Positions 5,706 to 59,612 of a stretch of DNA of 64,000 bases are shown here, in pieces. How positions within the stretch are numbered: the first letter of the stretch is position 1; each line of letters begins with the position of its first letter. The stretch lies in IMG/VR virus record IMGVR_UViG_3300020112_000918, positions 69,796 to 133,795 of that record; one strand, 5' to 3'. The notes beneath the pieces are model-generated. The model worked only from the letters and a program-made list of their open reading frames with translations, did not search any database and was not told the origin of the DNA. Origin of the DNA: a virus. Lineage: Duplodnaviria > Caudoviricetes. The position numbers and the translations under genes are program-made.

Positions 5706-6499
5706 TAGTTATCCTCCCAAGCTCTATTAGAAAAAATAGCCCCTACTGTTTCTTCAATAGGAATATCTTCGTGAATCGGAATTCCTGCGTCAGCTGCAAA
5801 ATCCAGCATAACTTTTTTAGTTATCCAGTAGCGATGACGGTCTTCATTCATTATCCAAGTTCCACAAGGTAAGTCTACTGTAACGGTCTGGATCCTGTTT
5901 TTCTCAAGCCAATCTCTATCTGTAAAGTCCGCATTCATATGCGTTGTTGTAGAGCAAACAACAATGTTCTTCAAAGTCTGTTCAGTTCCGTCTTCAGCTG
6001 TAGTGTCAATGAATGATTCAAGCAGTGTTTCATTAGAATCTGTCCAAAGCATCTTGGAAGTGATATATTGCAAGTCTACGTCTTCCTGACAAACAAGAAT
6101 TGCTGTATAGTTAAAGGTTGCTGGAGTTAAGCGAACTTTACGTCCAAGCTCTTCCATCCACATTCCTTCAACGTTCAGAGCTTGATTAAACCAAGTTCTT
6201 TCGTGACTTGTAGAAGCTGAATCCTGATTAAGCCGAAAAGCACAAAAAGGAAAGTCAAGAACTCCCCCATTTTTATTCCCTTTTCCCTGCTGAACAAGAG
6301 CGTTTACCTGCTGCTGACGTTTACGAAACATAAGGTCGGGAGAAGACCAGACTACTCGAGTCAAATCTCCTCCGAAGAAAGTGTCTGCAAAAAAGCGATA
6401 CACCGCAATGTTAGTAGAGAGGATATTGTTGTAAAACGGTTTTTCAAACCATCCTTTTCCCTTCTGCTGGAAAAAGCTGTCATCTCTTTTGTCAGCCAT
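5705..6499 (-). CDS. putative tail completion/terminator protein
   Basis: Size, position and DFPFCAF...TPATFNY pattern; inferred. Confidence 0.45.
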   Translation of the reverse strand: MADKRDDSFFQQKGKGWFEKPFYNNILSTNIAVYRFFADTFFGGDLTRVVWSSPDLMFRKRQQQVNALVQQGKGNKNGGVLDFPFCAFRLNQDSASTSHERTWFNQALNVEGMWMEELGRKVRLTPATFNYTAILVCQEDVDLQYITSKMLWTDSNETLLESFIDTTAEDGTEQTLKNIVVCSTTTHMNADFTDRDWLEKNRIQTVTVDLPCGTWIMNEDRHRYWITKKVMLDFAADAGIPIHEDIPIEETVGAIFSNRAWEDN

Positions 6500-6507
6500 A
6501 GGTTCTC

Positions 6508-6846
6508 CTAGTCAGCTAAAACAAGGTCGATTAAATCTTTCTTGTTCAATTCTGATATATCTCTCTTATCGTATCCTTTGTTAATCAGATAGATTTTAAG
6601 GTCAGCTACAGTTGCTTTTTCAACAAAAGCCTGACGATCATCTGGAGCTGCTTCTTCCTGTCTTTCCATAGGAGCTACTGTTTCATAAGCCCCGTTCTTG
6701 AATTCTGATACTTCAATCTGAGGATTCTTTGAACACTGCTTAAACAGTGAAGTTGAAACAAACTCATTCCACCTGTCTGAAATGAGCTTACCATCGATAA
6801 AAACTCCTCCAGGGATAGAAGTTCTTGCTTTAAAAATTGTTTCCAT
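6508..6846 (-). CDS. protein with a C-terminal HeH/Rho-N-like motif
   Basis: TVADLKIYL...G......LNKKDLIDLV. Confidence 0.55.
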   Translation of the reverse strand: METIFKARTSIPGGVFIDGKLISDRWNEFVSTSLFKQCSKNPQIEVSEFKNGAYETVAPMERQEEAAPDDRQAFVEKATVADLKIYLINKGYDKRDISELNKKDLIDLVLAD

Positions 6847-32593: not shown

Positions 32594-34852
32594 TTAAGAA
32601 AAACTCTTTACAGTTAATCCAAGTTTAGCTAAGTTCTTTTCCATAGACTTCTTGAAGGCTTCGTCGTAGTCGTCTCCCTTAGGGCTTTCTACAATAAGAC
32701 CTTCTCCCAGATAGTTATTCTCAAAAGGAACATCCAGTTCACGATTATAAATGTACCGAGGAACAGTAAGCTCTTCGTGAACAAGAGTGTATACGTTTTC
32801 TGCACAAACGTCTCCAACGTCCTTTGCGTTGGTTCCCATCATCGACAGCTCCCAGTCATTAGTATCAAGAACATTAACTACCTTACCGATTGTATGATCA
32901 ATCTTTTTACGCCCCTTTTCTGTAGAAGATTCCTGAATACACTTTAAGTTGTTTTTCAAGAAAATATTTCTTCCGGCTTTTACGTTTCCGATGTTAATCA
33001 GAGCTACGTAAGTAAGGTAAACATTTATTTCAGTATCAGCAGAAAGGTTAGCTACATTAAAGTTCTTTTCCTTTAGATAAGCAATAGTTGCGTGAGACTG
33101 GAAATTATCGAATGTAATCTTGAAAAGATTAATAGAACCCTTATCTCTCAGATCTTCAGGGAAAGTTCGGATGGCATCCAAATTGATACGCCCCTTTCCT
33201 GGAGAAATAGCGATAGTAAAATCGTGAACAGCAACTTTTTCATTATTTACTGCATCCCATTCCCAGTGAGACATACCAATACCGAGAACGTCTCCTGTTT
33301 CCGCAAGGTCGAATGAAAGAACTCGAAGAGCTTTTGGTGCACGGTAAAACTCGTAACGTTCCCCTACCTTTATAAAGAACTTATCACGAATCTGATTCCA
33401 GATAAGCTCGGCTGCTGGCTTAGTAGAAGGAGCCATGATATAAGTAGGAATATTCTTAAGCTGCGGAGTAAAGATATCTTCAATAAGCTGACGCTCACGA
33501 ATAAGTTTATCGAGAGAACCACTTGGCCAACCACCTGTGTTCTTAACAGCACGAGTAGTCGATTCCATGTATTCTCGTTTAAGGTCGATTGGAACCCAAA
33601 TAACTTCTTCTTTAGGATAAAGAGCAAGATTGTCTTCGTTGAGAACTTCTGCAGGAGAGGATGCTGATCCTCGGAATACTGGAAACTTTTCGCCAGTTTC
33701 AGCGTAAATCGGATAAAGTTCCCGCACACGCTTTCTGCTCGGATCTCGCTCATACATTTCCCACTGACTTCCTGTGCTGACGAAGTTTTCAGGGTCTTTC
33801 TGAGCCTGCCCCGTAAATATGTATTTATCGATAGGACTGACATCAAGGTCGTTAGGAGAAGAGTCAAGAACCGTTCCGCACAAATACTTATTACCGAAAC
33901 GAGACTTAATACGTTCCTTAGAATCCATGTAAATACGCCAGATATAATCAGTAGAGAACCCACGATCGATAAAGAAAGAAATTTCTGACATAGTTGACTG
34001 AATCATGTTCAAACCGAGCAACTGATGAGGTCCGGAAGCAACAATGTAGTGAATGTCATTAGGGAACTGCAAAACACCGATGCGGGATGCTGTTGTCCAA
34101 CAAATCTTGTCTGGGTATTTTTTCTGATGATTTTCAAGCTGCTCTTCTACTTTTACACGATGGAATTTCGGAGCAGTTGTCAATATCTGAATAAATGGCT
34201 GGAGCAAAAGCTGCTTAGCCTTATCTTGAGAGAACGAAATAAATGCTTGAACTATCGAAGTAGAAGCTGCCAAGCCAAAGTACTTCTTCGGATTGCGCAT
34301 CAAGAACAGGTTAATAGTAACAAACAGGTTGTGCATTGCTGAGATAGTCGAATTGTGTGTAATAAGTCCATTGTTTGTAAAATATAGTCCGTCTTTTGAG
34401 TCTACAGAAATGCAAGAGGTTTCTTCCTGATAAAGAGCTTTTCTTATGCAAAGAATAGTAACTCCTTCATCTTCTGCTGTTAAGAGTTCATCAGAATCTG
34501 AAATCGCAGGGTCTTTTACATAAGCATCGTAGCAGTGTTCATTTTCTGGATAAGAAGTCATCCAAATAAATTTTAGAAAAGGAACTCTTTCCCTCAGCCA
34601 CTCAGTAGTAACGCTTTCCCAGAATAACTGCCCATTAAGTTTTCTAAAAGAAACGACATTTATGTGGTCTTTATGAGTTCTTAGAACTCTTCCATCAGAG
34701 AGAAAAATATTATATACGTCTGTCAAGCCTTGAGGAAAAATAGCTTTTATGGGACGTTTACCTTTAGGAGTTAGAACTTCATCTCCTATAGCCAAGTCCC
34801 CATTACGCTTATAGACAAAACGCTTAGATTCTTTTACGGAAGATATTTTCAT
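32594..34852 (-). CDS. terL: terminase large subunit, C-terminal part, preceded by most of a split intein
   Basis: Intein blocks up to ITHN, then ST completing Walker A; nuclease motifs SFDLAETGD, ITFDNFQS, KDVGD. Confidence 0.88.
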   Translation of the reverse strand: MKISSVKESKRFVYKRNGDLAIGDEVLTPKGKRPIKAIFPQGLTDVYNIFLSDGRVLRTHKDHINVVSFRKLNGQLFWESVTTEWLRERVPFLKFIWMTSYPENEHCYDAYVKDPAISDSDELLTAEDEGVTILCIRKALYQEETSCISVDSKDGLYFTNNGLITHNSTISAMHNLFVTINLFLMRNPKKYFGLAASTSIVQAFISFSQDKAKQLLLQPFIQILTTAPKFHRVKVEEQLENHQKKYPDKICWTTASRIGVLQFPNDIHYIVASGPHQLLGLNMIQSTMSEISFFIDRGFSTDYIWRIYMDSKERIKSRFGNKYLCGTVLDSSPNDLDVSPIDKYIFTGQAQKDPENFVSTGSQWEMYERDPSRKRVRELYPIYAETGEKFPVFRGSASSPAEVLNEDNLALYPKEEVIWVPIDLKREYMESTTRAVKNTGGWPSGSLDKLIRERQLIEDIFTPQLKNIPTYIMAPSTKPAAELIWNQIRDKFFIKVGERYEFYRAPKALRVLSFDLAETGDVLGIGMSHWEWDAVNNEKVAVHDFTIAISPGKGRINLDAIRTFPEDLRDKGSINLFKITFDNFQSHATIAYLKEKNFNVANLSADTEINVYLTYVALINIGNVKAGRNIFLKNNLKCIQESSTEKGRKKIDHTIGKVVNVLDTNDWELSMMGTNAKDVGDVCAENVYTLVHEELTVPRYIYNRELDVPFENNYLGEGLIVESPKGDDYDEAFKKSMEKNLAKLGLTVKSFS

Positions 34853-36171
34853 TTAATCCTCTTGACAGTCCAGCCTACTCTAAATCCTTCAGGGACAGGT
34901 TCATCTTTTCGTATATAAGTGTTTATAGTGCCATTCGTTATACCAATTTTTCCTTTATTTTGAGAAGATTGTCCTTTGTGGGAGTCAGAAAGTTTTTTCT
35001 TATATTCAGGCTGCTGGTATAAGGCTTTCATAGTTTCGCTAGATTTTCGTTTAGCTTCTTGGTTTGGAAGTCTCCCTGCCTGAAAACCTTCTGGACAAAT
35101 TTCACAAAGAATTTCTGTTTCTCCATCTGTAAACCAATGGTATCTATCTAGGTTAGATTCCTTCCACTTCCAAGACTGCCCAGCAACTGTTTTACTAGCA
35201 GAGCCTAGTTCCCAGCCTTCTTTAAGAAATTCTTCTACTTGTTCGATTTTAACACATTTTCTTTCTGAACCTTTATGCATCCACTTAGTTCCTAAGGTAG
35301 AATGAACTACTCTTGTTTTCATAGATTTTCTAAAAATGTCAGAAACATACATCCCTAAAGAGTACCCTGCTTCTAAGTATGAATTAATTTCATTAGGATA
35401 AACATAGATATTCTTTGTCCCCTTATGCATCCACTTCTTACCAGTAGGGTCTGAAAAAACTCTGCCCTTTTTCCAACCAGCTTTTTTGTAAAATTCCCAT
35501 TCATCTATAAAAATCTTTTTAGATTTCTCTCCTTTCTTAGAAACGAAAAACATCTCTTTTTGTAGAGAATTACTTAATTCAAAAGACTCCATAGCTATAT
35601 CCAAATTCGCATAAAATTCTGTATCGCTTTTCAGAGAATCTAAATTATCAAACTCTACTAGACCAGAAGTTCTGTAAGCTGCTAGATAGTTACAGTAAGC
35701 GTATCTTAATTGTCCTTGTTTATGTTGTTCCTTAGCTCTAAGATAGTGAGCCTTAATGTGAAAATACAGGGGCAAAGAAATAATATTCTCTTTTAAATCC
35801 TGCCCTCCTTCACATCTAGGAATTATATGATGTCTATTAATAAAGATTTCGTTTTCTCTATAGAAGTCTTCTGAAAACTGCTTAAAAAAGGAAATCAGTT
35901 CTTCATAGTTCTCAATCTCAAAAGCCTTTTTAAACTCGCTAAAATGGTTTGCCCGATATTTCATCATACATAAATAGGCTATTTCATAAGGAAAGTCTAT
36001 AGTGTCTAATTCCCTATTCCTAATTTCTCTTGCCCTGATTACCTGCCACTCAGAGTTTTCCTGAATAAGAATCTTTTCTTCTGGGCGGAAAATAAGACTT
36101 TCGCAATTTTCGAAATTGAACTCTAAAACGTCTTCTTCATCTACTGCTACGGGTGTAGATACAGGGAGAGC
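34352..36171 (-). mobile_element. split Ala1 (class-3-like) intein with an HNH endonuclease, inserted in the TerL Walker A
   Basis: GIGK|ALPVSTPV ... GDLAIGDEVL ... THKDH ... SCISVDSKDGLY ... ITHN|ST. Confidence 0.85.
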
Positions 36172-36555
36172 TTTTCCAATACCAATAGCGTTAGCAAGAA
36201 CTAGATGACGGTAAGGAGAGTCATAGTTCCAGAACGCTTCAAGAATCTCTCTTGCATGAACGAACAAACTTTCTGCCTGAGGACCGAGCCACTCTTCTGA
36301 AAGAAATTCATGGATTGTTGGTGGCTTAGACTTGTAGTTGATCCTCCAAGAGTCCAAGAGTAAAAGTTCTTTCATATTGCTAGAAAGCATAGGATTATTC
36401 AATATAAGCTGCAAGCCTTTCTGGATCTCAGGGTCGGATAAACGTTGAAAGTCCTGTCTATCAGCGACAGAATCGTCTCCCTGGATCAAGTCTTTTATGA
36501 GAAAAGGATTGTCATTTGGATTTTCATAGTCTGTCTTAGGTACAATTATTTCCAT
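34849..36555 (-). CDS. terL: terminase large subunit N-terminal part + intein N-fragment + HNH endonuclease with NUMOD-like repeats
   Basis: PPTIHEFL...LVLANAIGIGK; RHHIIPRCEGG...NIISL...HIKAH; repeated KWMHKG/WFTDG/ITNG units. Confidence 0.85.
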   Translation of the reverse strand: MEIIVPKTDYENPNDNPFLIKDLIQGDDSVADRQDFQRLSDPEIQKGLQLILNNPMLSSNMKELLLLDSWRINYKSKPPTIHEFLSEEWLGPQAESLFVHAREILEAFWNYDSPYRHLVLANAIGIGKALPVSTPVAVDEEDVLEFNFENCESLIFRPEEKILIQENSEWQVIRAREIRNRELDTIDFPYEIAYLCMMKYRANHFSEFKKAFEIENYEELISFFKQFSEDFYRENEIFINRHHIIPRCEGGQDLKENIISLPLYFHIKAHYLRAKEQHKQGQLRYAYCNYLAAYRTSGLVEFDNLDSLKSDTEFYANLDIAMESFELSNSLQKEMFFVSKKGEKSKKIFIDEWEFYKKAGWKKGRVFSDPTGKKWMHKGTKNIYVYPNEINSYLEAGYSLGMYVSDIFRKSMKTRVVHSTLGTKWMHKGSERKCVKIEQVEEFLKEGWELGSASKTVAGQSWKWKESNLDRYHWFTDGETEILCEICPEGFQAGRLPNQEAKRKSSETMKALYQQPEYKKKLSDSHKGQSSQNKGKIGITNGTINTYIRKDEPVPEGFRVGWTVKRIK

Positions 36556-43340: not shown

Positions 43341-46300
43341 TTAAATTCTCTGCTGGGGTACAGAGTTTACATAATTCTGAATCTCAGTAAGTTCATTATC
43401 TGATAGTGGTCTCCGATACTTTTCTTCTAAAGAAAGACGCATTTCTTTTATAATGGCTTCCTTCGTCGGCTCAGCATAATGAACTTGTTCTTTGTAAGCA
43501 TCACACTTTTCTTTAAAAAGAGTTTCTATACGAATAGCAAGATTCATACCCTTTTCTTCTGTATGGTCACATCCTATAAGGATCTGAAGACACTCTGCTA
43601 AGCCTAACTGTCCAATAGCTAAAGTTCCGTGCTTAAGGGCTGAACGAATTCCTTCTTCTGGAACATAACCTTTCATAGTATTGTTCTGATACATAAACTT
43701 TGCAGAGTTTGGACTCTGAGAAGCAATCCACTCAAAGCGTTCAATAAGAGCGTCTTTTGTTTCGTCTATGTATTTTTCAAGCAGCTTCATAAACACGTCT
43801 ACTACAGCATCTGGATCAGATTTACTCTTCTTCTTAGCAAGCATAGCTACTGTTGGAAGAATGATGGTCTGCGGAGCAATATTTCCTCTTCCATCTCTCT
43901 GCATTGCTGAGCAAAGATAACTATCAGGAACGTCGCCTGTTTCCAGAATCTTTGTAAGCAAATCCAAAAAGTATTCTTTAGAAAAGTTGATATCGTAACC
44001 GTTATTTGTACGGCAATTATGCATAATGATATCAGAGCCAATGAAAGTTCCTGTCTCGGTTCCAATATCATAAGAGTCTACTGGCTCCCAGTGCCAGCTA
44101 ATATCCTCTACTTTTAGACGCAAACCATCTGCTCTGGATAGGAAATCTCCTACTTTTAGGTCTGCTGCTTTAGTAAAAGTCTCTCCCGTCCAAAGAGGGT
44201 GGTCTTCTGTACAAGAAAGACAATAGTGTTTTCCTTGTTCTTCGTAATAGATATGCATCATAAGCGGAGTGTTCAGCTTATCATTTTTGAAAACGTGGCG
44301 TACTTTAACCCATCGATTTTCTCTATCTAAAACTTTTATGTCTTCAGAAGATAAGTCAATTAAGTCCTGAGCAACTGAAGTATCGTGCTGAAATTGAGGA
44401 CGTTTATAAACTTTCTGTCCCTTAACAGTAATAGTCTTAAAGTATTTCTGAGAAGTGCCCTTAAAATTTACGTTAGGAATAGTTTCAATAAACCGTTTTT
44501 CTTCTGCTTCATAGTCTTCTGTATAAAGAAGAACTTCGAATATGTAGTGGGATAAATCTGAGTCACCGAAAGAAATTCCTGCGTCTAAACTTCCTTTAGT
44601 GCGAATATTTCCCCTATGCTCTGTAAGTCTTCGATTTACGTCTTTGCTACTTCCGATATAAGTTACATCTTCAGGAAGATAAGTAATTGCGTAGACTCCT
44701 GCTCCTACTTTTATCCCAGATTTGTGCTGTACCTTTTTATTTCCTGGAATTCTTAACTCTTCTTTATTGAAGAAAACCTTACAAGGTCGTGCTCTTAAAA
44801 CTCCAGTTTTACAGTATTCGTAAAAATCTTTTATAGAGATATCGTAAATACCTTGAGGAAGTTTTACGTACAGATGTTCTTTTCCGTCCAAAGCTCCCAT
44901 TGTAGAAAAGTCTTCTGTTGGCTGAACCTTTTCAGTAACAATAAGTTCCTCATTGTTTACTTCTACGTTAATCTTTTGTCCGATATCAGGATGCTTTTTG
45001 AAAATCTTTACAAGACCTTCGTAGTTTTCTGGAGAAAGGGTTCTGATAACTTCTTTCTTCAAAGCACGATCTTTTTTAATTCCCTCTGACTGAACTGACC
45101 AGTTACAGTTTGCATAGTTCGGATAAAGACGACGAACTGTAGAGTTAAGAGCCTTTTGATAAAATTCGTAATTAGGAGTTCCTTCCTTACCGTTCACATA
45201 TTTATCATACTGAAAAATCTGACAAGGGAAAATAGAAGTTCTTCCATATTTTCCTATACCAAGAATTGATGCACGATAAAAAGTCTCATTAAGAAGTTTT
45301 CCCTCTGGAGAAGTGTTTTTACCAAAGTTAATAGAAGAGAAAGGCAACTGATCCCCACTTCTTGAGAGTAGAGTGTTCAGATTGTGGTAAAGACCTTCGG
45401 CAGCCTGTTTTGTTTCAATGATAGTATCCAGCAAAGCACTCTGATACCATTTGCGACTAATTTTCTGAATTGTTCTACTTCCGAAATAGAAGTCGTCAAA
45501 AGACACATTCCAGTTTTTGAGGAATACCTCTTTATTATCCTGGAGCCACTCTTCAAAGGCATTTCTTACAATGCCGAAATCATCGACATAATCGTCAAGC
45601 ACAAGCTGTAAAAGGTTGAGACTTTTGAAGCTCTTTGAATCTTTAAGGGAAGCAATAATAAAATGCTTCATAAACGATTTTCTTACATAAATCTCAAGAG
45701 TGAAGTCCAGATGAGTGCAAGATACGCCCCCAAACTGCTGTAAAGACTGTGTCTGAACAAGAACTTGAATAAGCTGTTCTGCAGAAGAAATACTTCCAGC
45801 TGGACGGCAGTCTGAATTCTTTACAGTGAATCCGTTTGCTAAAGACTGATCTACAGGAAGACTTAAACAGTTATGTTCTCCAACACACCACTCAGACAAG
45901 TCATGCTCATAGGAAATATTGTCTCTGTGATTTTTTGCTGCCTTAGGTGATATGTAGTAATTCAGAGCAATTTCTTTATTAAGGGAGGAAGCTGCTTCAT
46001 TGTTTCTTCCCCCAAAAGATTCCTCATCTACATTCGCATTCTGGCGTTCATTTTTCTTCGCATCCAGCTTTTCACGATAGTTAGTAATCTCGTCTGTTGC
46101 TCCAAGACGTTCCCGATCTCTACGAGAACGGAATTCAATGTAGCTGCGAGCTACGTCATGCAGTTCTGCTCCCATAAGAGCGTTTTCCACGATTTTGTGA
46201 ATACCTGCAATTTTTATAGGCTTTGTGTCAGACCTTCTGTCTTCTAAACCAAGCCAAACCAATTTCATTACTCTCGCAACGTCTTCGTCGGAAAGTTTAC

Positions 46301-46397
46301 TCTCTGGAACTGTAGAACTTGCTGCTTTCTTGATTGCATTTACAATCTTCGCTTCATCAAAATCCACAATTCGTCCATCTCTTTTCTTTATAGTCAT
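43341..46397 (-). CDS. nrdD: NrdD N-terminal fragment (ATP cone) containing an intein
   Basis: IKKRDGRIVDFD ATP cone, HNCL, QFGG, PFSSINFG, TSIFP, MG|CRT, GRGNI, GQLGLAECL. Confidence 0.93.
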   Translation of the reverse strand: MTIKKRDGRIVDFDEAKIVNAIKKAASSTVPESKLSDEDVARVMKLVWLGLEDRRSDTKPIKIAGIHKIVENALMGAELHDVARSYIEFRSRRDRERLGATDEITNYREKLDAKKNERQNANVDEESFGGRNNEAASSLNKEIALNYYISPKAAKNHRDNISYEHDLSEWCVGEHNCLSLPVDQSLANGFTVKNSDCRPAGSISSAEQLIQVLVQTQSLQQFGGVSCTHLDFTLEIYVRKSFMKHFIIASLKDSKSFKSLNLLQLVLDDYVDDFGIVRNAFEEWLQDNKEVFLKNWNVSFDDFYFGSRTIQKISRKWYQSALLDTIIETKQAAEGLYHNLNTLLSRSGDQLPFSSINFGKNTSPEGKLLNETFYRASILGIGKYGRTSIFPCQIFQYDKYVNGKEGTPNYEFYQKALNSTVRRLYPNYANCNWSVQSEGIKKDRALKKEVIRTLSPENYEGLVKIFKKHPDIGQKINVEVNNEELIVTEKVQPTEDFSTMGALDGKEHLYVKLPQGIYDISIKDFYEYCKTGVLRARPCKVFFNKEELRIPGNKKVQHKSGIKVGAGVYAITYLPEDVTYIGSSKDVNRRLTEHRGNIRTKGSLDAGISFGDSDLSHYIFEVLLYTEDYEAEEKRFIETIPNVNFKGTSQKYFKTITVKGQKVYKRPQFQHDTSVAQDLIDLSSEDIKVLDRENRWVKVRHVFKNDKLNTPLMMHIYYEEQGKHYCLSCTEDHPLWTGETFTKAADLKVGDFLSRADGLRLKVEDISWHWEPVDSYDIGTETGTFIGSDIIMHNCRTNNGYDINFSKEYFLDLLTKILETGDVPDSYLCSAMQRDGRGNIAPQTIILPTVAMLAKKKSKSDPDAVVDVFMKLLEKYIDETKDALIERFEWIASQSPNSAKFMYQNNTMKGYVPEEGIRSALKHGTLAIGQLGLAECLQILIGCDHTEEKGMNLAIRIETLFKEKCDAYKEQVHYAEPTKEAIIKEMRLSLEEKYRRPLSDNELTEIQNYVNSVPQQRI
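44016..44894 (-). mobile_element. Ala1 intein with a GIY-YIG endonuclease (293 aa)
   Basis: MG|ALDGKE...GVYAITY...YIGSSKDVNRRLTEH...CTEDHPL...SYDIGT...MHN|CRT. Confidence 0.9.
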
Positions 46398-54108: not shown

Positions 54109-54315
54109 ATGGCTAAAGCAAAGACTGTTGCTAAGATTGTTTATGTAACGAATAAAGAATATACAATCTCATTTTCTATTGGAGGGAATGAAGTTCTTGA
54201 TAAAGAAGCCCTTAAACAAACTCTTGCTAAAAAAGAATTAGAACTGCGAAATAATTATGGAAAGAAATTAAAAAGCCTTGAAGTAATTTATACAGAAGGA
54301 GTTGAGAATGTTTAA
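54109..54315 (+). CDS. hypothetical protein
   Basis: GGAGG SD before MAKAKT; terminator-like hairpin at 54068-54093 upstream. Confidence 0.55.
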   Translation: MAKAKTVAKIVYVTNKEYTISFSIGGNEVLDKEALKQTLAKKELELRNNYGKKLKSLEVIYTEGVENV

Positions 54316-55216
54316 GCAGACTTTTTTAACTACAAGAAAGCGCGGACCAAAAATTCTTGTATTAAGTGGCATTCACGGAGATGAAACTCAGGCAGTAAAA
54401 ACTGTTCTGAAATTCGCAGAAGAAATCAGTAAATCTGTTAATTCTCCTGCTTCTGCTTTGAGCAAGGTAACTTCTTATACTTTCTTACACGGAGTAAACG
54501 ACTATGGTCTTTTAACTCATCAGCGAGAAAATACTTTTCAAAAAGAAACTGTTCCTTCTCAAAATTTAAATCGTCTTTTTACTCCTACTTACCAGACTCC
54601 TCAAGAAGTAAAAGATTTGATTACTCCGGAAATTGAAGCAGCAGATATTGTGATCGACGTGCACAATTCTCCTGTTTGTAAAAATTGCTTTTTAGTGGAC
54701 TATGATTCATACGCTGAAAAATGTCTTTCTCTTACAAAGAAAACAGCTTTGACTCCGTTGCTCAGGGTTGCTAATGTAAGTGCAGGAACTGTAAAAAGCA
54801 AGGCTCTTTCTCTTGGGAAGATTGGTTTTACAGTAGAATTAAATGGAATGGGATTCTTAGGAAGTGACCCAGATCGAGGAGCAACTTTGCTTCAAGACTT
54901 CTTAATTTCTATTATTGATTCCTATGAAAAACCCGTAACTCCTCTAGACAGACTAGAAGATTATCTTTCTGTTTTCTTATTTTCTAAGATATCTGGAATC
55001 TTGGAGTGGAATTGTTTAGACCCTTTTATGAAAAAATATAGTAAAGGAGAAATAATTTGTACAGTGACTTCTTTAGACGGAAAAGAAGTACAAGAAATTA
55101 AAGCTCCTTTTTCAGGTGGATTTGTTTACGATATCCCCGATTCTCTTTACATAAGTAAAGGTGAGCCGTTTATCGAATACGCTAAGAACCCACAAGAACT
55201 TTTTAATAAAGTCTAA
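54308..55216 (+). CDS. succinylglutamate desuccinylase/aspartoacylase-family (M14) metallohydrolase
   Basis: GIHGDE, NLNR.F, IDVH, FTVEL, C-terminal IKAPFSG. Confidence 0.85.
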   Translation: MFKQTFLTTRKRGPKILVLSGIHGDETQAVKTVLKFAEEISKSVNSPASALSKVTSYTFLHGVNDYGLLTHQRENTFQKETVPSQNLNRLFTPTYQTPQEVKDLITPEIEAADIVIDVHNSPVCKNCFLVDYDSYAEKCLSLTKKTALTPLLRVANVSAGTVKSKALSLGKIGFTVELNGMGFLGSDPDRGATLLQDFLISIIDSYEKPVTPLDRLEDYLSVFLFSKISGILEWNCLDPFMKKYSKGEIICTVTSLDGKEVQEIKAPFSGGFVYDIPDSLYISKGEPFIEYAKNPQELFNKV

Positions 55217-55248
55217 CTTTTAGAGTTCTGTTCGGAATTATAAAAGAC

Positions 55249-57432
55249 ATGAGTGATGAATTTGATGATTTCTTTGGGGAAGAAGCCCCTAAAGTAAAAA
55301 ATGCAGAAGTAAAGGAAATCGTAGAGAATCCGATTCTATTTGATGAGCCTGACGCTAATGTTAATGTTCTTTTAGCAGACAAGCTGTCAGACCATCAGAT
55401 AGCTTACCTTGTAAAACTTGCTCACCAGAGCGACGCAAAGGTTCGAGTTATCTACTGTTTTCCTTTTGTAGCTAATGAAAAACACATGGTTAAGGGTATG
55501 GCACGTTTCTTCGTAGAAAATGTTCGTTCAGACCTTAAAAACTTTATTATGCGCAATCATCCTGTAGTGACTGTGGGACGTGCGATTTATGCAACCACCT
55601 TTGATACAGATGTTCAGATTGACGCATTTTATGATTCTATTTTTAATCATACGTATTTTTATTCTCCTTTTGTAGACAATCGTGTTTATCCGATTGACAA
55701 TGCTTTCCGTATTTGTGGATTCGGTCAGCCTGACCCAAAGTCTGGGGAGCCTATCTACTTTTGGGACCGTTTTGAAACAGCTTTTGCTAGGGAACAGTTT
55801 AAACGTGCAGCAAAAGCCGGAAACTGTTCTCTCATGCGTAAACGAAGTATTTCTATTAAAGAAATTGAAAACTGCAATGAATGGCTTCTGGCTCATTCTG
55901 AAAATATTCCTGAGCATGAGCTTTGGGTAGCTGTCGACTCAGAAACAGGTGGTTTCAAGAAACTGGAAAATCGTATTGGAAATATTTCTCTTGCGTTTAA
56001 CGGGTATGAAGCTCTTTACTTGGACTGGAAAAATATCAACCCTAGAATTTTTTCGAAGTTCTTAAATGCTCATAAACTTATTTTCGCAAACGGTAAATTC
56101 GATATTCTGTTCTTCGCTTATCACGGTTGTGACTTACACAAGCTCGATTGGGATACAATGGTTGCTGGACACTTCTTAAATGAGATGCGTTCTAATTCAT
56201 TGAAGACCCACGCTTTCTGGTATACCAATTACGGTGGATATGATCTTGACCTTGAACGTTATAAGTGGAAGTATCCAGGAATGATTGACTACACCAAGAT
56301 TCCTAAGTCTATCCGTATGCCTTACGCAGGAATGGATGCTGCGATTACTTATCAGGTTTGGCAGCGTGAAAAAGAAGACATGATGAAGGAGCCAGAGCTT
56401 TATGAATACTACATTGAGACAGCTGTTCCTATGATTAACGTGTTTGCTAAAGCAGAGTATAAGGGCTTCTGCATTAACTGGGCTGCTATTTCTAAAACAG
56501 GTGACGAGCTTCAGGAAAAACTTAAGGTATGTAAAAAAGCCGTTAGGGATGCTTACAATGAACCTGACCTTGATGTAAACTCAAAACAAGCCGTAGGCGA
56601 TATGCTTCAGGCTCACGGATATCCTGCAATCGATATCGGAAAAACAGGACATTACAAAGTGTCTAAAGTTGAACTTAATGAGTGGAAAAAGCTCGGATAC
56701 AAAGAAGTTGATACTTTGCTTGAACTGTCTAAATGGACTGCTCTTTGGCAGACCTTCATCGGAGAAGATGCTTCTTCAGAAGAAGATCTTACTTCCGAAA
56801 ACGAAGCTGAAGAGTCAGATTCATTCTTTAATGAAAGCTCGACTACTGCTGACAAGTTTAATAATGACTCAACAGGCTTGTGGAAATACAAAGCTCCTGA
56901 CGGATGCGTTCATACAACTTTCCATCCGTTCATGGCTCAGTCTCACAGACATCGCTCAAGTGACCCTAACCTTCAGAATATTCCTAAAAAGAATTATGAA
57001 GCAACCCGTCTTGTGCGAACTGCCTACACAACTCCGGACACAATTCCTTGTAAGCCTGAAGAAGCAGATAAGATTAATCTTCTTTGTAAGGACAGTGGCT
57101 ACGTTTCACTCTACTCAGGAGAGATGATCAATATCGGTGGAAATGTTTGCATGGGAAGGGATATTCCGTCGCTCGACCTTGACTCCCTCGGAATTAGAGC
57201 TGAATATGAGAAGTTTTATAATTCCGACTTCGCAAAAGGAACAGAAAGCTATCTTGAGATTCAGGACTCAGTACGGGGCAAGCTCATACTCCCTATCTAC
57301 GAAGATTCAGCAAAGAAGAAGTTTGTTGAAATCTTCGTTAAGCGTAATGGTTCTGTTCAGAAAGTTTTCACAAAAGACTTACAGGAAGGAGACGAGCTTG
57401 TAGAAACTGATGCAGTTAAAACAGCTTGCTAG
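55249..57432 (+). CDS. polA: family A DNA polymerase, part 1 (3'-5' exonuclease and thumb)
   Basis: VDSET, NGKFD, DTMV, YAGMDA, SSDPNLQNIP. Confidence 0.9.
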   Translation: MSDEFDDFFGEEAPKVKNAEVKEIVENPILFDEPDANVNVLLADKLSDHQIAYLVKLAHQSDAKVRVIYCFPFVANEKHMVKGMARFFVENVRSDLKNFIMRNHPVVTVGRAIYATTFDTDVQIDAFYDSIFNHTYFYSPFVDNRVYPIDNAFRICGFGQPDPKSGEPIYFWDRFETAFAREQFKRAAKAGNCSLMRKRSISIKEIENCNEWLLAHSENIPEHELWVAVDSETGGFKKLENRIGNISLAFNGYEALYLDWKNINPRIFSKFLNAHKLIFANGKFDILFFAYHGCDLHKLDWDTMVAGHFLNEMRSNSLKTHAFWYTNYGGYDLDLERYKWKYPGMIDYTKIPKSIRMPYAGMDAAITYQVWQREKEDMMKEPELYEYYIETAVPMINVFAKAEYKGFCINWAAISKTGDELQEKLKVCKKAVRDAYNEPDLDVNSKQAVGDMLQAHGYPAIDIGKTGHYKVSKVELNEWKKLGYKEVDTLLELSKWTALWQTFIGEDASSEEDLTSENEAEESDSFFNESSTTADKFNNDSTGLWKYKAPDGCVHTTFHPFMAQSHRHRSSDPNLQNIPKKNYEATRLVRTAYTTPDTIPCKPEEADKINLLCKDSGYVSLYSGEMINIGGNVCMGRDIPSLDLDSLGIRAEYEKFYNSDFAKGTESYLEIQDSVRGKLILPIYEDSAKKKFVEIFVKRNGSVQKVFTKDLQEGDELVETDAVKTAC

Positions 57433-57442
57433 GGAGAAATCG

Positions 57443-58210
57443 ATGATAACATCTATAAAAACAATTACAACCATGCCAGCATACAACATTCTTGAGTGTG
57501 ATGGTGAAAACTTACAGGCTCATATTGCTGCGTCTATGTCGCTTGATCCTGCTCTGTGTAAATTGTTCTTGGGTGGAGGAGACTTTCACTCAAATAATGC
57601 GTATTCTATTATGGCTAAGTATCAGTTGTTTACTCCGTTCGAAGTAACTTTCGAAGACGGCAGTAAAGAAGAAATAATGGAGTGGAAGTCGTTTGACTTG
57701 CCTCGTGGAAAACACATAGCCATAAAAGACATCCAGGAAGGAGATGAAATACACGGTAAAAAAGTTTCTTCTATTAAGTTCCTTCCTGCCCGTAAAATCT
57801 CTTACGAAGAATATTATGCTGATGCCAAGCAAGGTCGTCTAAAAGAACTGCGAACAACGGCTAAACTTTGTTTCGCAAGAGGAACAGAAATTTTTACAAC
57901 AAAAGGTTGGCTTCCTATTGAAACAATAGCCGAAAACTCTATAAAAGATTTTGGTCTTTTGTACGAGGGAGACTTAAAAGTCATAGGAAGAGATGGAAAG
58001 CCAAAAGAAATTTATGGCACGATTAATAATAATCCGTCTCCTATGCTGGAATTTGAACTAGAGGACGGAACTTTACTAAAAGTAACGGAGGATCACGAGC
58101 TTTTAGTAAAACGGGATGGAAAGGAAATAAGAATTCTTGCAAAAGACGCTCAAGAAGATGACGACATCCTTGATTTTGAGCATCCTAAAATAAAACCTTC
58201 TGTATTTTAA
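57443..58210 (+). CDS. polA: family A DNA polymerase, part 2 (motif A, DFH, start of motif B) + N-intein
   Basis: ILECDGENLQAHIAASMSLDPAL, GGDFHS, RTTAKL|CFARGT; AGGGAG SD before ATG 57443. Confidence 0.88.
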   Translation: MITSIKTITTMPAYNILECDGENLQAHIAASMSLDPALCKLFLGGGDFHSNNAYSIMAKYQLFTPFEVTFEDGSKEEIMEWKSFDLPRGKHIAIKDIQEGDEIHGKKVSSIKFLPARKISYEEYYADAKQGRLKELRTTAKLCFARGTEIFTTKGWLPIETIAENSIKDFGLLYEGDLKVIGRDGKPKEIYGTINNNPSPMLEFELEDGTLLKVTEDHELLVKRDGKEIRILAKDAQEDDDILDFEHPKIKPSVF

Positions 58211-58430
58211 GAGACCCTGTAAACGTAGTTAAGTTTTCTTCAGTGAAAATTTTGTCTGGAAAAGGTGCTGCCTTTACAGTACTCATGGAATTAAAACTAA
58301 GGGAGCTAGGAATAGAAGTATGAAAATTAAAAAGATTAGAAAAATAGAAGATCAGGAGTCTTTCTGCCTGAATGTTGAAGACCATCTGCTTGTAGTGAAA
58401 ACTAAAACTACACCCGTTGTCGTGCCGAAC
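57869..58430 (+). mobile_element. naturally split intein in PolA motif B
   Basis: IntN CFARGT...VTEDH (113 aa), stop; IntC MKIKKIRKI...VVPN|C (37 aa). Confidence 0.88.
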
Positions 58431-59144
58431 TGCGGATTCGGATTTTTGTTTGGAATGTCTGCCCTTACTTTTGCTTCGTCAACTCTTCGTATGGAATGGT
58501 CTGCAAGTAAGTGTAAAGACTTCATTGTGGAATATCACCTTGAACGTTTGGAAGCTAAACTTAAAGCACAGTATCGTAAGCAGACCGATGATGAGATTGC
58601 TTACCTTACAGTTGCTACGTTCTTCCGTGATGAGTTCTTCAAGATGTATCCTGTTCTTGAAAAATGGATTCTTCAGCAAGGTGCTTTGGCTGCTAAGCAA
58701 GGCTACGTAAGATCTCCTTGGGGAGCAAGACGTCTTCTTCCGCAGCTTACCTATCAGGGACGTCACTCTGACTCTAAGGTAATAAAGAATCTTTCCAACA
58801 TTGCCGTAAACTCACCTGTTCAGAACTATGAAGCAGTGTACATGGCAAAAGCGATGGTAGGAACTGCTAGAGACATGGAAGCTAACGGATTCCACTCTTA
58901 CATTGCGGGAACGGTTCACGACTCTATTGTTCCTTTTACTTTTGTAGAAGAACAGGATGAAGTTCTTAAAATTATGCTTACTTACTTCGCTACAGATTAT
59001 CCTGCTGCTAAGGGAATTCCTTATGCTGGAGAGTGTAACGTAGCTGTTGTCAACGAAGGAGAAATCTGGGGATATGGTTCTTCAGAATGGCACTTAAAAG
59101 AAGTTGCTGATGTTCAGATTAAGCCCCGTAATTATTTTGCTTAG
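58320..59144 (+). CDS. polA: C-intein + family A DNA polymerase, part 3
   Basis: CGFGFLFG, GYVRSPWGARR, AVNSPVQ, TVHDS (motif C). Confidence 0.9.
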   Translation: MKIKKIRKIEDQESFCLNVEDHLLVVKTKTTPVVVPNCGFGFLFGMSALTFASSTLRMEWSASKCKDFIVEYHLERLEAKLKAQYRKQTDDEIAYLTVATFFRDEFFKMYPVLEKWILQQGALAAKQGYVRSPWGARRLLPQLTYQGRHSDSKVIKNLSNIAVNSPVQNYEAVYMAKAMVGTARDMEANGFHSYIAGTVHDSIVPFTFVEEQDEVLKIMLTYFATDYPAAKGIPYAGECNVAVVNEGEIWGYGSSEWHLKEVADVQIKPRNYFA

Positions 59145-59180
59145 TTAACGCTTTTTACAATTTTTTCGGAATTATAAAGC

Positions 59181-59612
59181 GTGAGGGAAATACTTACAGG
59201 AGTTGGAATTATGGACATTATTCGTGAAAAAATCTTGAAAAACTGGATGGACTTTCTAGCAGAGTCTACCAAAGCTCGAGAAAAACTTATGCGTGATTTT
59301 GATAAAGCCATAAGTAAACTCGACAATACTGTAGCTGAGCAACGTCAGGCTACGATCCTTCTTCTTAAGAAAGCTCTTAATCTTAAGGACGGGGATGAAA
59401 TCAGACTTTATAGTAATGGAAACTATGAAATTATCAGGAGGAATTCTATGGAAGACAACAAAACAGAAGTAACAGAAGAAAAAGTTACACTGAATGGACG
59501 TGAAGTATCTCAGGAAGAACTTCAGCGACAGAAAGAAGCAGCTGCTGCCCAGAAAGGTGCTAAACTCGAAGAAGTTAGCAAGGGCAACTACCGCATGAAG
59601 CTCGAGGGATAA
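59181..59612 (+). CDS. hypothetical protein (possibly two genes; internal SD and ATG at 59448)
   Basis: AGGAGG precedes MEDNKTEV. Confidence 0.55.
   Translation: MREILTGVGIMDIIREKILKNWMDFLAESTKAREKLMRDFDKAISKLDNTVAEQRQATILLLKKALNLKDGDEIRLYSNGNYEIIRRNSMEDNKTEVTEEKVTLNGREVSQEELQRQKEAAAAQKGAKLEEVSKGNYRMKLEG

Follow-up and report, generated by a model that had tools for sequence, protein, structure and literature searches.

A phage family A DNA polymerase encoded by three genes, with a predicted split intein at one break and a putative intein-derived, splicing-dead clasp at the other

A family A DNA polymerase spread over three genes

The DNA analyzed in this study (64,000 nucleotides (nt), hereafter the window) is the final 64 kb of a 133.8-kb IMG/VR virus record (IMGVR_UViG_3300020112_000918, Caudoviricetes) that is 79% complete. 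Between positions 55249 and 59144 of the window, a single family A DNA polymerase is spread over three open reading frames (ORFs) of the + strand, each in a different frame. This arrangement had been proposed in an earlier reading of the letters alone (the sequence-only reading), and the ORF coordinates, the Pfam matches and the positions of the polymerase motifs all agree with it. The interruption between parts 1 and 2 is called break 1 and that between parts 2 and 3 break 2. The features of the locus are as follows (aa, amino acids).

55249-57432, + strand: polymerase part 1 gene (frame 1, 727 aa, TAG stop), with the N-terminal domain, the 3'-5' exonuclease, the thumb, the first palm strand and modules D1 and D2
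57043-57219, + strand: D1, an in-frame beta module of ~59 aa on the tip of the palm hairpin that precedes motif A, shared by fused relatives
57220-57429, + strand: D2, the 70-aa C-terminal tail of part 1, present in split forms only; N half of a predicted splicing-dead half-Hint clasp
57430-57442, + strand: gene boundary at break 1 (TAG at 57430-57432, overlapping AGGGAG at 57431-57436, 6-nt spacer, then ATG at 57443)
57443-58210, + strand: polymerase part 2 gene (255 aa), with the head strand, motif A, D3, the first half of motif B and the N-intein
57443-57484, + strand: head of part 2 (MITSIKTITT...), C half of the predicted clasp and equivalent of the first C-intein strand
57488-57517, + strand: motif A, ILECDGENLQ, with the catalytic Asp kept and Gln at the position of the Pol I Glu
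57638-57787, + strand: D3, an in-frame half-Hint-like module of ~50 aa in the fingers, between motifs A and B
57869-58210, + strand: N-intein (113 aa), with Cys1 (CFARGTEI) directly after RTTAKL and block B TEDH
58184-58323, + strand: degenerate 3' remnant of a free-standing TnsA-like endonuclease gene, frameshifted, its old TGA overlapping the ATG of part 3
58320-59144, + strand: polymerase part 3 gene (frame 3, 274 aa), consisting of C-intein and C-extein
58320-58430, + strand: C-intein (37 aa), beginning MKIKKIRKIE..., with block F NVEDH and the end VVVPN
58431-59144, + strand: C-extein (237 aa), with Cys+1, the second half of motif B (CGFGFLFG), motif C and the end of the palm

The ORF of part 2 is open from 57410 (57410-58210, frame 2, 266 aa), and the start at ATG 57443, the position found in all relatives, gives the 255-aa protein. 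Orthologues of part 1 are 714-728 aa long and have the same endpoint as the window protein. In part 1, Pfam detected DNA_pol_A_exo1 (PF01612; aa 221-372, E 3.9e-11, 43.5 bits at a cut-off of 23.6) and DNA_pol_A (PF00476; aa 545-597, E 5.3e-10, 39.2 bits, above cut-off), and the latter family was also found above its cut-off in part 3 (E 6.9e-15, 55.3 bits). The matches of part 2 were weak (DNA_pol_A, 14.1 bits; Hint_2, E 0.007; Intein_splicing, E 0.0014). The DxE motif of Exo I is present as VAVDSETGG at aa 227-235 of part 1. Motif B is divided between parts 2 and 3 (RTTAKL and CGFGFLFG) with its Arg and Lys kept, motif C is VHDS at 58908-58931, and both metal-binding Asp residues are retained, one in ECDGENLQ (motif A) and one in VHDS.

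The divergence of motif A (DGENLQ) and the Phe that replaces the usual Tyr of motif B (FLFG), both remarked upon in the sequence-only reading, are real features of the protein. Together with the Ser that replaces the usual Glu of motif C, they occur throughout the family, fused forms included, and are not marks of decay; the Gln of motif A is also present in outgroup forms. In Pol I, the Glu of motif A is the residue that discriminates against ribonucleotides. With Gln at this position and Ser in motif C, the sugar selectivity of this polymerase family may differ.

The fold of the whole polymerase was examined on a single read-through chain of one relative (contig L003): the two-ORF enzyme of L003, read through its TAA in the shared frame, gave an AlphaFold2 model with a complete Klenow-like polymerase fold and a predicted local distance difference test (pLDDT) score of 87.5. 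Foldseek matched this model to the Klenow fragment (1kfs, E 3e-25, target template modelling score 0.83) and to Bst Pol I (up to 0.87). The first 200 aa of part 1 (55249-55850) constitute a conserved domain before the exonuclease, which has no Pfam match and a pLDDT above 90 in the model of the L003 orthologue.

Break 2 divides motif B by a split intein

The sequence around break 2 has the essential residues of an intein. Cys1 directly follows RTTAKL at the end of the first half of motif B, TEDH is kept in all intein alleles of the family, and the C-intein ends and the C-extein begins as VVVPN/CGFGFLFG, i.e., a terminal Asn followed by Cys. Compared with the relative L006, the ratio of nonsynonymous to synonymous substitution rates (dN/dS) is 0.06 for the N-intein and 0.01 for the C-intein, a sign of strong purifying selection on both halves. 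Removal of the intein would leave a ligated chain of 142 + 237 = 379 aa, which is exactly the length of part 2 in relatives that have no intein, and the junction peptide predicted for the spliced parts 2 and 3 is TAKLCGFGFLFGM. The intein-free 379-aa proteins (P0100-P0102 and P0106) have uninterrupted sequence at this site, RTTAKLCGFGFLFG, in some of them exactly the predicted ligated junction; the allele P0101, for example, reads KELRTTAKLCGFGFLFGMSALTF. On these sequence grounds, break 2 is most likely a genuine split intein, as the sequence-only reading had supposed, and trans-splicing is predicted. Across the relatives, the following states of the motif B site were found.

Empty: P0100-P0102 and P0106 (379-aa part 2)
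Contiguous 145-aa mini-intein: L002, P0105 and P0107
Split intein: seven N-half and six C-half clusters, plus a divergent C-half group (P0129-P0135)
Halves more than 6 kb apart: L009

The contiguous mini-intein (L002/P0105) matches the solved CDC21-1 intein (E 0.0015). In L009, a gene for a divergent C-intein with its C-extein (P0129) lies at 6001-6831, and no N-part of the polymerase was found within 6 kb upstream, which places the two halves at unlinked positions.

In L007, a 353-aa TnsA-like endonuclease gene (PF08722, 2e-9) is located between the intein halves, joined to its neighbours by overlapping stop and start codons. When this endonuclease was used as a tblastn query, the spacer of L006 returned 82 aa of the endonuclease C-terminus at 59% identity, and the spacer of the window returned 40 aa at 35% identity in a shifted frame. 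By sequence similarity, the 109-nt spacer between parts 2 and 3 in the window, which the sequence-only reading had left without an origin, is the decayed 3' end of an endonuclease gene, and the final ~9 aa of the window N-intein are read from the same remnant.

The identities of inteins and exteins are decoupled in this family. The exteins of P0141 and P0105 are 96% identical and their inteins, a split and a contiguous one, 57%; P0142 and P0146 are 72% identical in their exteins and 96% in their inteins. Because of this decoupling, the sequences indicate that the intein allele moves between polymerase genes. Further inteins were found at two other sites of the polymerase among P0012, P0023, P0029, P0036 and P0041-P0043: one at SHRHR/C...N/SSxPNLQN, where the intein has an HNH-type insert or is a mini form, and one within the exonuclease domain, where the insert is of the LAGLIDADG type. 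The polymerase gene is thus an intein hot spot. At the motif B site, the series of alleles (empty, contiguous mini-intein, split with endonuclease, split with decayed endonuclease) documents the origin of a split intein.

Break 1 is a conserved gene boundary

The junction at break 1 reads TGC TAG GGAG AAATCG ATG, that is, a stop codon, a ribosome-binding site and a start codon; the AGGGAG that the sequence-only reading had assigned to part 2 as its own Shine-Dalgarno sequence is indeed in place. The same boundary is shared by L002, L003, L004, L006 and L007, and L005 is cut at a nearby site, which makes six independent contigs, obtained from different samples. None of these relatives has an uninterrupted ORF at the position corresponding to 57432, the outcome that would have spoken for an artefact. 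In L002 (89% protein identity), the boundary consists of TAA, GGAG, a 5-nt spacer (one base shorter than in the window) and ATG, which brings both ORFs into one frame. The other five contigs are arranged as follows.

L003: halves 12 nt apart, part 2 starting with TTG
L006: halves 9 nt apart
L004: a 267-aa homing endonuclease gene (phrog_314, 4e-27) between the halves, on the opposite strand
L007: a 129-aa putative membrane protein gene (L007 4601-4990) exactly in the break, with a weak LemA-like match
L005: four small genes (1.6 kb, L005 5956-7510), including a GNAT acetyltransferase, between the halves; the cut lies inside D1, ~15 residues earlier

The stop codon (TAG or TAA), the length of the spacer and the relative frame of the two ORFs vary among the six contigs. 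Split boundaries are marked by TAG or TAA, a conserved GGAG, spacers of 5-12 nt and ATG or TTG; the two ORFs are in frame with an intervening stop in L002, L003 and L006 and offset by +1 in the window. The homing endonuclease within break 1 of L004 had no counterpart in the sequence-only reading.

Close relatives also occur as fused single proteins of ~1040 aa. In a tree of the shared N-terminal region, all members (7/7) of the window clade are split, and the sister clade interleaves fused and split forms, for which well-supported branches force at least four changes. Since fused and split forms interleave, the split state at break 1 has been gained or lost repeatedly, as expected of a mobile cassette. 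Judged from these comparisons of sequences, break 1 is a real and old gene boundary.

The tail of part 1 and the head of part 2 resemble the middle of an intein

An insertion of ~130 aa just before motif A had been described in the sequence-only reading. Additional sequence is present there, not as one insertion but as two modules with different distributions: D1, which fused relatives also have, and D2, which only split forms have. D1 (~60 residues) is missing from more distant relatives. The D2 tail is 57-70 aa long across the split forms, and the alignment shows the fused ~1040-aa forms to be devoid of both D2 and the head. Part 2 begins with MITS(I/V)K in all relatives, and exactly 15 aa precede the strand of motif A in every split form.

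The break itself has none of the splicing residues, as had been noticed before: Cys1, TxxH, blocks A, F and G, and a terminal Asn with a following nucleophile are all missing. D2 begins with N, K, D or E after EYEKFY, its block B position reads YEDS rather than TEDH, and part 2 has ~10 aa before the extein, with no Asn-Cys/Ser/Thr junction. Because Cys1, TxxH, blocks F and G and the terminal Asn are absent, break 1 cannot splice.

D2 together with the head aligns with the gene's own motif B intein. The local hhalign score is 43.4 (E 2.8e-7, probability 93%, 37% identity over 38 columns), as compared to 11.5 +/- 2.3 for column shuffles, none of which (0/80) exceeded 17.8. The alignment spans the intein from block B to the split site, and in global hhalign mode the head (MITSIKTIT) was placed on the first strand of the C-intein (MKIKKIRKI). 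We also modelled D2 and the head of L002 with AlphaFold2 as one chain of 88 aa read through the stop codon, using an input alignment free of inteins. When this model was compared with 48,161 PDB representatives, the best 15 matches were all inteins or other Hint domains (Z 7.0 to 3.5), including PI-PfuI (Z 7.0), the PolII mini-intein (Z 6.1), KlbA (Z 5.2), gp41-1 (Z 5.0), the hedgehog Hint domain and the NrdJ-1 split intein. The intein matches span the middle of the Hint fold and extend to model residues 85-88, i.e., the head strand, and AlphaFold2 predicted a strand at the head in both the L002 and the L003 models. In the Foldseek search with the same model, the top 12 matches were inteins, with probabilities of up to 0.99 but no E value as low as 0.001.

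D2 is under purifying selection (dN 0.14, with saturated synonymous sites (dS)). The charges of the tail and the head (-3 and +1) parallel those of the two halves of the live intein (-5 and +3). An exhaustive HMMER search of 1.84 billion proteins with a D2 profile found two fragments that belong to this family and, by chance, one repeat of a beta-propeller, and did not show the spread of the module. Taken together, the sequence comparison and the models suggest that D2 and the head are an intein-derived, splicing-dead half-Hint, which most likely forms a non-covalent clasp between the two chains; this derivation of break 1 had not been recognized in the sequence-only reading.

An origin of D2 as a tandem duplicate of D1 was also considered and is only partly right. 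The two modules do score above chance (16.8; shuffles 2.8 +/- 2.2), and D2 is nearer to D3 than to D1, and nearest to the intein. Common descent from an intein explains D2 better than duplication of D1.

Related modules and fractures elsewhere in the polymerase

Both in-frame modules have some similarity to the middle of the intein. For D3, hhalign gave E 1.6e-6 and a score of 36.8 (shuffles 10.7 +/- 2.0); for D1, the similarity to the family intein is weak, with a score of 23.7 and E 1e-3 (column shuffles 11.0 +/- 2.1). D3 is related to D2. In the L003 model, D1, D2 with the head, and D3 share one order of elements, in which four strands are followed by a short helix or loop and then by a fifth strand.

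The polymerase is also fractured at the other modules in certain relatives. In L005, the fracture lies inside D1, and in a distant relative (L008, 32% identity; L008 3379-6844), PolA is fractured inside D3 with a gene for a 362-aa protein rich in Trp-Gly repeats in the gap. The fractures in D1 (L005), D2 (window) and D3 (L008) coincide within the module: each falls between the GDxI turn and the last strand, which is the usual site of intein splitting and endonuclease insertion. D1 and D3 may be older clasps that were fused in frame.

A broader reading of these modules, which we put forward tentatively and hold to be somewhat short of an even chance, is that the half-Hint module is a travelling "bandage" of a mobile endonuclease cassette and that this gene keeps the whole life cycle of such cassettes. 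The stages, no more firmly held, might run from a live split intein with a just-decayed endonuclease (motif B) through a dead clasp at a permanent fracture (D2 with the head) to two older clasps healed in frame as permanent domains of the polymerase (D1 and D3). If true, dead inteins would in general supply broken genes with subunit interfaces and replication enzymes with new insertion domains.

Proposed assembly of the polymerase and alternative explanations

We consider it likely, from the sequence comparisons and models described above, that the enzyme is a two-chain polymerase in which part 1 and the trans-spliced parts 2 and 3 are docked by a half-Hint clasp. The three adjacent genes, probably co-transcribed, would have been left by two different mobile endonuclease cassettes. 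At break 2, the N-intein (the C-terminal 113 aa of part 2) and the C-intein (the N-terminal 37 aa of part 3) would associate, and trans-splicing would yield a chain of 379 aa with the layout of the intein-free part 2 of relatives; the endonuclease gene formerly located between the two halves has decayed to about 140 nt. At break 1, the gene is permanently cut before motif A, and D2 (70 aa) and a head strand of ~10 aa would rebuild the central part of a Hint fold, which extends from block B as far as the first strand of the C-intein. Through this clasp and the palm interface, the 379-aa chain would dock on part 1 non-covalently, which would restore the palm hairpin of motif A and give a two-chain polymerase predicted to be active. 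A heterodimer of part 1 with the spliced parts 2 and 3, as already suggested by the sequence-only reading, is supported by the comparative evidence from sequences.

Several observations weigh against this proposal. The confidence of the D2-head model is moderate (pLDDT 65.6), and the structural Z values do not exceed 7, a level at which chance matches between common folds can occur. The Pfam scan gave no Hint domain in part 1. Comparison of the D modules with the second intein of the family (at the HRHR/C site) was not significant (E 0.02-0.2), in a test of low power in which the two real inteins of the family match each other only at 2.4e-4. The case for D2 is carried by the agreement of the sequence comparison with the two structure searches, the Z values alone being modest. 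In ribonucleotide reductase NrdA of phage Aeh1, comparable tails are not needed for heterodimer formation (PMC3045599), and tails of this kind may serve another step of assembly. At break 2, the residue before the terminal Asn is Pro, not His, and the N-intein of the window is extended at its C-terminus by a short foreign sequence that stems from the endonuclease remnant.

The simplest of the alternatives is that break 1 is a frameshift introduced by sequencing or assembly, or else that the gene is a decaying pseudogene. Loss of one A at 57418-57421 would indeed fuse frames 1 and 2, as the sequence-only reading had cautioned, and that remark is mechanically correct; an error of this kind is nevertheless very hard to reconcile with a boundary that recurs in six independent contigs with variable stops, spacers and frames and that accommodates whole genes in L004, L005 and L007, while a pseudogene would not be expected to show strong purifying selection on both sides of the break in the sole polymerase detected on the record. 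We regard this explanation as extremely improbable. Joining of parts 1 and 2 during translation, by programmed frameshifting or ribosome bypassing, is suggested by ORFs that overlap or abut with an offset of +1 in the window, but this offset varies (in L002, L003 and L006 the two ORFs share a frame interrupted by a stop), the halves in relatives can be as far as 1.6 kb apart with other genes in the gap, and part 2 has its conserved ribosome-binding site and start codon, with no match to an Rfam element; it is scarcely credible to us. Recoding of the stop codon was ruled out, as read-through of the TAG in the window meets a TGA within 20 codons.

The remaining alternatives accept the gene structure and differ in what the intein-like segments do. 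The tail and the head might be inert leftovers of a cassette, with the chains assembling via the polymerase's own interfaces and the half-Hint playing no role. The dispensability of the Aeh1 NrdA tails for heterodimer formation would fit this, as would the split form of L005, which has a short tail only, and the location of the break at a surface hairpin. Inert sequence would not, however, be expected to show a dN/dS far below 1 across lineages with saturated synonymous sites, a head of constant length before motif A, fractures of D1, D2 and D3 that all fall at the canonical split point of inteins, or charges that mirror those of the live intein, and we judge this explanation unlikely, at roughly one chance in a handful. 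It is also conceivable, though quite improbable, that the split intein of the window no longer splices and that the enzyme consists of three non-covalent pieces. The penultimate Pro and the N-intein end altered by the deletion that removed the endonuclease are in favour of such a loss. Some active inteins lack the penultimate His, and Pro-Asn-Cys is kept in every allele of this lineage, including contiguous ones that must splice to yield a polymerase (the distant P0129 group has a conserved Arg instead). Moreover, Cys1, TEDH, block F, Asn and Cys+1 are intact in the window under a dN/dS of 0.01-0.06, and since the motif B helix is cut midway, an unspliced product is unlikely to be functional. 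The two-chain polymerase with one spliced and one clasped break is the reading that we prefer.

Other features of the record

The gene content of the record includes rIIA/rIIB-like, NrdD and helicase genes; a crAss-like origin was ruled out by rIIA, rIIB and NrdD. Apart from the enzyme described above, no family A and no family B DNA polymerase was detected on the 133.8-kb record, at its completeness of 79%. A scan for promoters and terminators gave counts not above those of shuffled sequence and did not indicate separate transcription units, and no Rfam family, introns included, matched positions 54800-59600 at E 0.1 or better. Among cultured phages, megablast gave no near relatives, and tblastn gave only PolA genes of ~25% identity, which are uninformative on the breaks.

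Three further observations concern neighbouring or more distant genes of the window. Just 5' of the polymerase, a 304-aa ORF (54302-55216) without a PHROG match is conserved in L002. At 43341-46397 (- strand), a 1017-aa NrdD-like ORF matches anaerobic ribonucleotide reductase profiles at aa 2-437 and 834-972 only, and the ~400 aa between these two regions are left unexplained by these matches. At 32594-36555 (- strand), a 751-aa ORF with a partial match to the terminase large subunit adjoins a 567-aa ORF with a weak homing endonuclease match (phrog_655).

Comparison with known systems

It is common for mobile endonucleases to split essential phage genes into two pieces. To our knowledge, how genes cut in this way stay functional is known in detail for one enzyme only, Aeh1 NrdA. 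Fractured genes, in which the halves of a split intein flank a free-standing endonuclease gene and the loss of the endonuclease is a late step, were described by Dassa et al. in 2009 (PMC2677866). Break 2 has the same layout, with the N-intein ending one gene and a C-intein of ~37 aa beginning the next, and in L007 the two halves are separated by a gene for an endonuclease of the PD-(D/E)xK restriction-enzyme type, where neighbouring stop and start codons overlap. The endonuclease family of Dassa et al. is Vsr-like; the L007 endonuclease is assigned here by its Pfam TnsA-like_N match. The intact endonuclease gene of L007 differs from the window, which keeps just a pseudogene remnant of ~140 nt; because only this remnant is left, the window represents a late stage of the Dassa model. 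The host gene is also different, being a phage family A polymerase cut inside motif B: PolA was not found among the host genes given by Dassa et al. (gp41, NrdA/J, IMPDH, DnaE and others; PMC2677866). In addition, contiguous, split and empty alleles coexist here on nearly identical exteins. Break 2 extends this class of fractured genes to a new host gene and to a stage of decay.

Break 1 is closer to the nrdA-a/mobE/nrdA-b arrangement of Aeromonas phage Aeh1 (Crona et al. 2010, PMC3045599; Friedrich et al. 2007), in which the tails at the fracture are essential, yet not required for heterodimer formation; these tails have no detectable homologues, and an origin from a degenerate intein was suggested but not demonstrated. 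A search of one collection of papers found no later demonstration of degenerate-intein tails and no description of dead half-intein clasps. Like nrdA, the gene studied here is an essential replication gene with an intein-less fracture caused by a homing endonuclease cassette; an endonuclease lies in the break 1 gap of L004, and the tail and head are missing from unbroken homologues. Both enzymes are made of separate polypeptides, in the present case as predicted from the genes. Unlike in Aeh1, the tail and the head demonstrably resemble the central part of an intein, both in sequence and in predicted fold, a live relative of that intein lies 150 codons downstream in the same gene, and the endonuclease of break 1 has been lost from the window. 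The presence of a live split intein and a splicing-dead copy of its middle in one gene provides an internal control and makes the degenerate-intein idea of 2010 directly testable. In practical terms, the gene could provide a new split intein pair of the Cys type (113 + 37 aa) as well as a small pair for non-covalent docking (70 + 10 aa), both predicted.

Phage replicative polymerases in two genes are also known from T4-related phages, whose split gp43 enzymes belong to family B and in one case have a gene for a GIY-YIG endonuclease in the gap (Petrov, Karam and co-workers, as cited in PMC2677866 and PMC3045599). From what is given there, both the polymerase family and the site of the break differ from those found here. 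Cyanobacterial DnaE and PolB of Nanoarchaeum equitans are split polymerases with a single break, which are trans-spliced from the products of unlinked genes. As in these enzymes, the catalytic chain of the polymerase described in this study is predicted to be restored by trans-splicing; in contrast to them, its halves are encoded by adjacent genes, and a second, non-spliced break is present in the same enzyme.

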